Of a stretch of 64,000 nt of DNA, positions 8,880-9,251 are shown piece after piece. The stretch lies in sequence record LR999871; one strand, given 5' to 3'. Source of the DNA: Escherichia phage vB_Eco_Jura. The notes beneath the pieces are model-generated. The model worked only from the letters and a program-made list of their open reading frames with translations. It was not told the DNA's origin and ran no database searches. The first letter of the stretch is position 1. Each line of letters opens with the position of its first letter. A program made the position numbers and the translations under genes.

Positions 8880-9251
8880 ATGAACCGTATTACTGAAGAA
8901 CATATTGATAGCATCATTGAAGGTGCTTACTACTTCAATATGGCTAAAGCTGTAGAGAATGAAGCAGTTCTGATTCCTGAAGACCATTTAAAAGCATTGA
9001 GTACAACTACTGTTTGTGCACTGGTTCTTTCTAATGGATTCACTATTACTGGTAAATCTGCCTGTGTTGACCCTAACACCTTCAATGAGGAGTTAGGTAA
9101 GAAATATGCTTACGAACAGGCCGTTGATAAGGTATGGGAATTGGAAGGCTATCTGCTTAAGCAAAACCTGCATGAGAAAGCTCAGAGCCAGGAAATGCTA
9201 AAAGAGTTCCTGCAAGATGACAACTGTGAAGGTGGGGGCTGTAAAATCTAA
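8880..9251 (+). CDS. small protein (123 aa), phage Gp49-type candidate
   Basis: ATG preceded by AAGGAAG. Core motif NGFTITGKSACVDPNTFNEELGKKYAYEQAVDKVWELEGYLL is one I associate with small conserved phage proteins (the N4 gp49 / Sf6 gp66 family); family assignment is from memory. Confidence 0.5.
   Translation: MNRITEEHIDSIIEGAYYFNMAKAVENEAVLIPEDHLKALSTTTVCALVLSNGFTITGKSACVDPNTFNEELGKKYAYEQAVDKVWELEGYLLKQNLHEKAQSQEMLKEFLQDDNCEGGGCKI

Follow-up and report, generated by a model that had tools for sequence, protein, structure and literature searches.

Organization of the locus

The window, by which we mean the whole 64,000-nucleotide stretch of the genome of Escherichia phage vB_Eco_Jura analysed here (sequence record LR999871), carries a short gene orthologous to N4 gp48, hereafter acb4, that lies between a cluster of tRNA genes on its 5' side and the orthologue of N4 gp49 on its 3' side (Table 1). 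The initial annotation had described a 123-residue product with two recognizable motifs, a stop codon overlapping the start of a Tad2-like gene, and a position between a tRNA island and a bidirectional terminator, and all of these points are borne out. The motifs NGFTITGKSACVDP and VWELEGYLL occupy residues 52-65 and 85-93 of the product, and the ORF is preceded by a ribosome-binding site. The stop codon shares one base with the start codon of the gp49 orthologue (TAATG), and the terminator that follows, with T runs on each strand, is common to the acb4-gp49 unit and to the convergent virion RNA polymerase gene. The ORF is also supported far above chance, with 182 homologues recovered in a search of 5.8 billion proteins and relatives detected by tblastn in 896 of 50,697 phage records.

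Table 1. Positions of the genes, signals and domains at the acb4 locus, numbered from the first nucleotide of the window
Feature	Position	Strand	Details
N4 gp46 orthologue	6239-6796		48% identical to Ab09 Bes1 (gp60), E 4e-54
N4 gp47 orthologue	6799-7242		31% identical to Ab09 Bes2, E 1e-9
tRNA genes Asn, Ser, Thr and Pro (n=4)	7700-8378		5' of acb4
Intrinsic-terminator-like hairpin	8825-8854	+	12-bp stem with 6 G-C pairs, then TTTTTTATTT
Shine-Dalgarno-like AAGGAAG	8869-8875	+	4 nt 5' of the acb4 ATG; read from the sequence
acb4 (N4 gp48 orthologue)	8880-9251	+	ATG at 8880, TAA at 9249-9251; 123 aa
N4 gp49 orthologue	9251-9736	+	ATG at 9251-9253; 161 aa
β-rich domain of the gp49 orthologue, without Pfam model	9251-9490	+	residues 1-80; confident structure model
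Tad2-like (DUF2829) domain of the gp49 orthologue	9497-9727	+	residues 83-159
Bidirectional terminator hairpin	9745-9762	both	7-bp stem with 6 G-C pairs, T runs on each strand
Virion RNA polymerase gene	9771-20291	-	3,506-aa ORF, convergent; hallmark of N4-like phages

A scan of the + strand from 7200 to 10200 yielded no sigma-70-like promoter for acb4. The hairpin that separates the tRNA cluster from acb4 is a strong terminator-like structure, absent from the initial annotation, whose 3' end lies just 25 nt from the acb4 ATG; either read-through of this hairpin or a promoter for the phage RNA polymerase II is a candidate source of acb4-gp49 transcription. No terminator was found between acb4 and the gp49 orthologue. 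Because the two genes overlap at TAATG, have no terminator between them and share the one downstream, we infer from their layout that they are co-expressed.

Two further features were observed in the region 5' of acb4. At 7389-7642 there is a perfect tandem duplication of 127 nt (7389-7515 and 7516-7642, 100% identical), with a G+C-rich hairpin, GCGACTGG...CCAGTCGC, in each unit. Two 30-nt test segments of this unit, the hairpin included, each occur once in the N4 locus, where the gap between gp47 and gp48 is 118 nt shorter than in the window. The duplication is either genuine variation between strains or an artefact of assembly. Between the genes for tRNA-Thr and tRNA-Pro, sequences resembling a tRNA T-arm, GGTTCGA[AG]TCC, occur at 8154-8186 and 8253-8270, and there is an inverted repeat at 8181-8207/8267-8293. 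Neither ARAGORN nor Rfam calls the T-arm-like sequences as tRNAs, and they may be decayed tRNA genes.

Relationship to N4 and to the anti-signalling hotspot

The window derives from a member of Enquatrovirus. With the segment 8700-9800 as the query, megablast returned 15 full-length matches, all from Enquatrovirus coliphages and with 97-99% identity: 99.0% for vB_Eco_SPSP and vB_Eco_AL25, 98.9% for Bas69/AlfredRasser and 97.6% for N4 itself. At the protein level the acb4 product has the same sequence as its vB_Eco_SPSP counterpart (100% identity) and agrees with N4 gp48 (UniProt A0MZD7) at 120 of its 123 positions. N4 is annotated alike in GenBank and RefSeq, where the 372-nt gene at the equivalent position is gp48 and the following 483-nt gene is gp49. 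Primers published for the 'acb4 gene locus' of Bas69 in the preprint on the PanDA system (bioRxiv 10.64898/2026.08.10.743972) have perfect matches in the window, one at 8780-8798 (+) and the other at 9331-9351 (-), thereby bracketing the ORF. Given this identity to the N4 and Bas69 locus, primer matches included, the ORF is the acb4 gene that has been studied experimentally; it is already known and characterized, and is not new.

The nomenclature of the family calls for some care. The title of Pfam entry PF13876 is 'N4 Gp49/phage Sf6 gene 66', and NCBI correspondingly uses 'Gp49 family protein'. This name departs from the numbering of N4, because the N4 member of PF13876 is gp48 and the true gp49 is the Tad2-like (DUF2829) neighbour.

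For Pseudomonas N4-like phages, an 'anti-signalling hotspot' has been described ahead of the virion RNA polymerase gene, comprising an Acb4-Sequestin protein (gp59), Bes1 (gp60) and Bes2 (gp61), and the corresponding part of other N4-like genomes is reported to carry Tad2, Tad3, Acb4 and Sequestin (10.64898/2026.06.04.730250). In the window, acb4 and the orthologues of bes1 and bes2 lie in the corresponding place, flanked by the replication/SSB genes on one side and by the virion RNA polymerase gene on the other, and the Acb4 core is orthologous to that of Ab09 gp59 (53% identity over 58 residues, E 8e-22). The bes1 and bes2 orthologues, the match in the Acb4 core and the position together indicate that the segment 6239-9736 is the published hotspot. 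Bes1 and Bes2 are 'broad evasion of signaling' proteins, Bes1 being RuvC-like by structure prediction (10.64898/2026.06.04.730250). The gp46 orthologue of the window had no sequence match in Pfam, NCBIfam or PDB, so that a RuvC-like assignment by sequence is unsupported and the link to Bes1 runs solely through its 48% identity to Ab09 gp60.

Family membership, fold and ligand pocket of the acb4 product

In a Pfam search the acb4 product matches PF13876 ('Phage_gp49_66') over all of the model (positions 1-82 of 82), scoring 119.9 bits (cut-off 27) with an E-value of 6.8e-35. This upholds the Gp49-type family call of the initial annotation; its accompanying statement that the function of such proteins is unknown is out of date, as PF13876 is the published Acb4 family of anti-CBASS sponges and the N4 protein has itself been studied. 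The PHROGs collection places the protein in phrog_322 (E 7e-49), which is annotated as function unknown, and no NCBIfam model matches either the acb4 product or the gp49 orthologue. A PDB sequence search with the single protein returned only 'anti-CBASS 4 (Acb4)', entry 9E4W (E 9.4e-4), and a profile built from 121 relatives matched the SPO1 Acb4 of this entry with an E-value of 5.4e-9. The conserved core covers residues 4-97 of the 123-residue product.

An AlphaFold2 model of the monomer, computed from the alignment of these relatives, has a pLDDT of 88.7, with the last ~12 residues at low confidence, and shows strands at residues 13-20, 43-50 and 55-61 and a helix at 70-112. It thus agrees with the description of the Acb4 protomer as a three-stranded antiparallel sheet accompanied by helices at the N-terminus and by a long helical region at the C-terminus. 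In a Foldseek search of the PDB the best 13 matches were all chains of 9E4W (probability 1.00, target-normalised TM 0.61-0.69); these were the only matches at E < 1e-3, the next one having an E-value of 0.16. As the core of the Acb4 monomer resembles the α-β-β-β-α arrangement of the dsRBD, one could imagine a dsRNA-binding protein that acts on RNA, but we consider this exceedingly unlikely. The KR motif needed for binding dsRNA is reported to be lost in Acb4, the Foldseek search yielded only 9E4W and no dsRBD protein at E < 0.1, and binding of nucleotides by the N4 protein has been directly measured (10.64898/2026.08.10.743972), so that the dsRNA-binding reading is already largely refuted.

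The ligand contacts listed for SPO1 Acb4 by Chang et al. were transferred to the window protein through two concordant sequence alignments, and the correspondences below are those of sequence alignment only. The stacking and adenine-pocket residues F48, F62 and N63 of SPO1 correspond to F54, F68 and N69, and these positions are almost invariant in character among the 121 relatives (F or Y in 121/121 at each of the first two, N or D in 120/121 at the third). Threonine takes the place of both guanine-reading residues, K36 and E49 (here T42 and T55), and the relatives have mostly T or L at the former position and T or K at the latter. Elsewhere in the pocket, I66 is conservatively replaced by L72, and V56, Y57, T70 and K81 correspond to C62, V63, Y76 and E87. 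Judged from the alignments, these substitutions would fit an altered base specificity.

Predicted function and ligands

Published work on the family supplies most of the functional context. Chang et al. (bioRxiv 10.1101/2024.12.30.630793) showed that SPO1 Acb4 is a tetrameric sponge for four molecules of 3'3'-cGAMP, the tetramer being established by crystallography and SEC-MALS, and demonstrated inhibition of CBASS by this protein. They equated the family with PF13876 (1,331 members), list the N4 protein A0MZD7 in their Table S3, and modelled eight homologues as tetramers. In the same study 8/8 tested homologues, which the text leaves unnamed, bound 3'3'-cGAMP, and 3'3'-cAA was bound only by Acb4 from phages of Gram-negative hosts (10.1101/2024.12.30.630793). 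Their screen of lysates for a cGAMP shift was considered as a source of evidence on N4 and set aside; N4 is absent from that screen, which is therefore uninformative on N4 Acb4.

The N4 protein has been studied directly in the context of two guard systems. Knock-down of acb4 restores plating on hosts with Panoptes, and N4 Acb4 alone triggers Panoptes toxicity (PMC12657230). Escape mutants of Bas69 map to acb4, and Acb4 of either N4 or Bas69 is by itself sufficient to trigger PanDA; the Kd of N4 Acb4 is 111 nM for 3'3'-c-di-AMP and 13.7 uM for cUAMP, and proteinase K releases ligand from the purified protein (10.64898/2026.08.10.743972). We found no report of N4 Acb4 protecting a phage from CBASS, the direct data being ligand binding and guard activation.

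Taken together, these lines of evidence make it very probable that the ORF is acb4 and that its product is a homotetrameric cyclic-dinucleotide sponge that blocks the activation of CBASS effectors. By homology and from the published work, the product would assemble as a homotetramer, in which the pockets between protomers would bind and sequester the cyclic dinucleotides that the host makes as CBASS-type signals. With its signal sequestered, the CBASS effector would stay inactive. Panoptes and PanDA, both of which N4 Acb4 sets off when expressed alone, are guard systems that watch for sequestration of this kind. The TAATG overlap would couple the translation of acb4 to that of the gp49 orthologue, the C-terminal half of which is a Tad2-type sponge domain.

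Which signals are sequestered is less certain. For the phage of the window, both binding of 3'3'-cGAMP and protection from CBASS are properties that we infer from the family; the former leans on the statement that all eight homologues of Chang et al. bound this ligand, because the guanine-reading K36 and E49 are here T42 and T55. The alternative is that in E. coli hosts the main targets of this clade of Acb4 are adenine-only signals (3'3'-c-di-AMP, 2'3'-c-di-AMP or related products of CBASS) and not 3'3'-cGAMP. The replacement of the guanine-reading residues speaks for this, as do the nanomolar affinity of N4 Acb4 for 3'3'-c-di-AMP (10.64898/2026.08.10.743972), the use of 2'3'-c-di-AMP by Panoptes, which N4 Acb4 triggers (PMC12657230), and the confinement of 3'3'-cAA binding to Acb4 from phages of Gram-negative hosts (10.1101/2024.12.30.630793). 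However, the eight homologues that bound 3'3'-cGAMP included ones from phages of Gram-negative hosts, and the Acb4-Sequestin protein of Ab09 binds 3'3'-cGAMP, if weakly, and partly inhibits a CBASS of the cGAMP type (10.64898/2026.06.04.730250). On balance we regard a mainly adenine-only specificity as a serious possibility, albeit on the unlikely side, and retain the broader reading of a cyclic-dinucleotide sponge.

The identification has practical consequences. Genes of this and related records that carry the label 'hypothetical protein' or 'Gp49 family protein' can be renamed acb4. The name predicts resistance of the phage to at least some CBASS systems and also sensitivity on hosts with Panoptes or PanDA, a point that bears on how wide a host range N4-like therapeutic phages have.

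The C-terminal cysteine tail

The acb4 product ends in a clade-specific Cys-x4-Cys tail, C116-E-G-G-G-C121-K-I (residues 116-123, encoded at 9225-9248). A tail of the form C-E-G-G-G-C-K/T-I is kept in 53 of the 121 relatives, including some from phages of different genome type, and the strings 'GGGCKI' and 'GGGCTI' occur together 35 times among the 1,331 proteins in Table S3 of Chang et al. We found no discussion of this tail in the papers on Acb4 that were consulted. With two cysteines in each protomer of a tetramer, it suggests a possible inter-subunit metal site or disulphide.

Homologues that are 49% identical and carry the variant CEGGGCTI were also seen, in genomic surroundings unlike those of the window, on three contigs, L003, L004 and L005 (on L004, a 76-kb IMG/VR contig, at 5001-5369). 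On these contigs the Acb4 gene comes after a tRNA-like sequence and is followed by convergent genes, one of which resembles that for the large terminase; no Tad2 partner was found within 5 kb of it.

Linkage of Acb4 with the Tad2-type neighbour

The downstream gene had been called Tad2-like, and both profile and fold agree: the gp49 orthologue matches PF11195/DUF2829 with an E-value of 8e-24 and structures of Tad2 with E-values of about 1e-25. Proteins of the Tad2 family bind gcADPR and His-ADPR, the signals of TIR-containing Thoeris systems. Some records for relatives of gp49 use the names 'Thoeris anti-defense 2-like' or 'anti-CRISPR protein', in each case by homology only, and we found no report on N4 gp49 in relation to Thoeris or its signals.

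The conservation of the pair was assessed in IMG/VR contigs with custom HMMs, by counting partners within a radius of 5 kb around the best-scoring 80 loci for each anchor. With Acb4 as the anchor, a gp49-type gene is present near 4 of the 80 loci; after clustering at 90% identity, the figure is 3 of 58 clusters. Starting from the best 80 gp49-type loci, Acb4 is present near 27 (22 of 62 clusters) and is on the same strand in 27/27; in 21 of these 27 the two genes are within 400 nt of each other, with Acb4 upstream in 13 and downstream in 8. Both conditional frequencies are well above the prevalences in the 50,697 phage records (896 with relatives of Acb4 and 317 with relatives of gp49/Tad2 by tblastn), the ratios being rough as the loci are the best-scoring 80 and were drawn from a database other than the one behind the prevalences. 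The proposal that the two genes form a conserved pair was accordingly overstated, the partner being found in only 4/80 loci from the one side and 27/80 from the other.

A stronger version of this proposal is that Acb4 and the gp49 protein make up an obligate hetero-oligomeric sponge for multiple ligands, in which neither is functional alone. The one-nucleotide overlap of stop and start codons with no terminator between the genes, the uniform orientation of Acb4 in the 27/80 linked gp49-type loci, and the existence of Acb4-Tad2 fusions, one of them active against both CBASS and Thoeris (10.1101/2025.07.12.664507), could all be accommodated by such an arrangement. Nevertheless, N4 Acb4 is active without its neighbour, both in binding its ligand and in triggering Panoptes and PanDA (PMC12657230; 10.64898/2026.08.10.743972), and the Acb4 and Tad2 parts of the published fusions were modelled as separate homotetramers (10.1101/2025.07.12.664507). 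We consider an obligate complex very improbable, and an obligate conserved unit can be rejected on the locus counts and on the variable order of the genes. Acb4 and the gp49-type protein instead resemble two sponge modules, each independent of the other, that accumulate at a shared anti-defence locus and are often fused, their association being enriched and co-directional but not obligate. Frequent fusion of Acb4 and Tad2 was also noted by Tal et al. (10.1101/2025.07.12.664507), whose fusion screen queried Pfam architectures.

The N-terminal domain of the gp49 orthologue

The N-terminal half of the gp49 orthologue is a β-rich domain characterized by the motif YIGTK..PM..Y..RGW..EGYLVEY...GYISWSPK..FE.AY. 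It had no Pfam match up to an E-value of 10, no match in NCBIfam or in a PDB sequence search, and no convincing fold match. Since the domain is without a Pfam model, the fusion screen of Tal et al. (10.1101/2025.07.12.664507) was blind to it. It is nonetheless widespread: a phmmer search of 1.84 billion cluster representatives located it in at least 1,350 clusters (50% identity), 637 of them at E <=1e-10, in proteins that range from 88 to 658 residues. Among the 150 best representatives the partner domains recognized by Pfam were Sequestin (55), Tad2-like (37), Acb4 (21), the Acb2/Tad1 hairpin (4) and WDGH (1). Likewise, phrog_9467 unites the gp49-type N-terminal domain with the Acb4 core, and there are 37 occurrences of the string 'SWSPK' among the PF13876 proteins tabulated by Chang et al.; in such proteins Pfam detects only the Acb4 part.

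Several identities for the domain were considered. Sequestin (PF21825), which forms the helical C-terminal domain of the Acb4 protein of phage YH30, is rejected, as it is not a match up to E 10 and its helical structure differs from the β-rich gp49 domain. A degenerate duplicate of Tad2 and a relative of Acb4 received hhalign probabilities of just 0.5% and 0.8%, respectively, and both are rejected. Tad3-Tad8 are described as binders of ThsB and of effectors, and not as domains fused to sponges.

Because the domain is fused almost only to known sponge families, a pattern of 'guilt by fusion' like that of Sequestin, it is a candidate for a hitherto unrecognised module of the sponge toolkit, either a new ligand-binding sponge or a shared adaptor for oligomerisation or regulation. 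We put this forward as a speculation that is more probably wrong than right by a good margin. If it were true, the acb4-gp49 pair would constitute a three-module cassette. This domain is the only part of the locus that might repay further work.

Comparison with known systems

The closest counterpart of the window gene is the acb4 of N4 (gp48) and Bas69/AlfredRasser, which is the same gene in the same place between the tRNAs and gp49/virion RNA polymerase. The window protein differs from N4 Acb4 by V16A, T101A and G109E, none of which falls at a mapped ligand position.

The structurally characterized SPO1 Acb4 (PDB 9E4W), the founding member of PF13876, belongs to the same Pfam family and has the same fold, and its aromatic and asparagine pocket residues are retained in the window protein. 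At about 22% identity the two nevertheless differ in several respects. Besides the replacement of K36 and E49 by T and T, the N4-type protein has an insertion of ~17 residues (residues 20-36), found in about 55 of the 121 relatives, and a C-terminal extension of ~25 residues ending in CEGGGCKI; the insertion and the extension also set this clade apart from the majority of relatives, which have ~95 residues. The ligand range differs too: c-di-AMP is rejected by SPO1 Acb4 but bound by N4 Acb4 at 111 nM.

The Ab09 protein gp59 shares with the window gene the hotspot beside bes1 and bes2, and it too triggers Panoptes; its Acb4 domain is tetrameric by SEC-MALS (10.64898/2026.06.04.730250). It differs in having a second sponge, Sequestin (PF21825), fused at its C-terminus, whereas the window has a separate Tad2-type gene and an Acb4 with a cysteine-containing tail. 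The Acb4-Tad2 fusion of Pasteurella phage Pm86 combines the same two sponge families as the window and cancels type I CBASS as well as type I Thoeris (10.1101/2025.07.12.664507). In Pm86 the two are joined in one polypeptide, whereas in the window they are encoded by two translationally coupled genes, and the gp49 protein has in addition the N-terminal domain discussed above. Finally, Acb2 (the T4 vs.4 family) is analogous in function, since it forms an oligomer that sequesters the cyclic nucleotides of CBASS and it likewise triggers Panoptes (PMC12657230), but it is hexameric and has an unrelated fold and no sequence relationship to Acb4.
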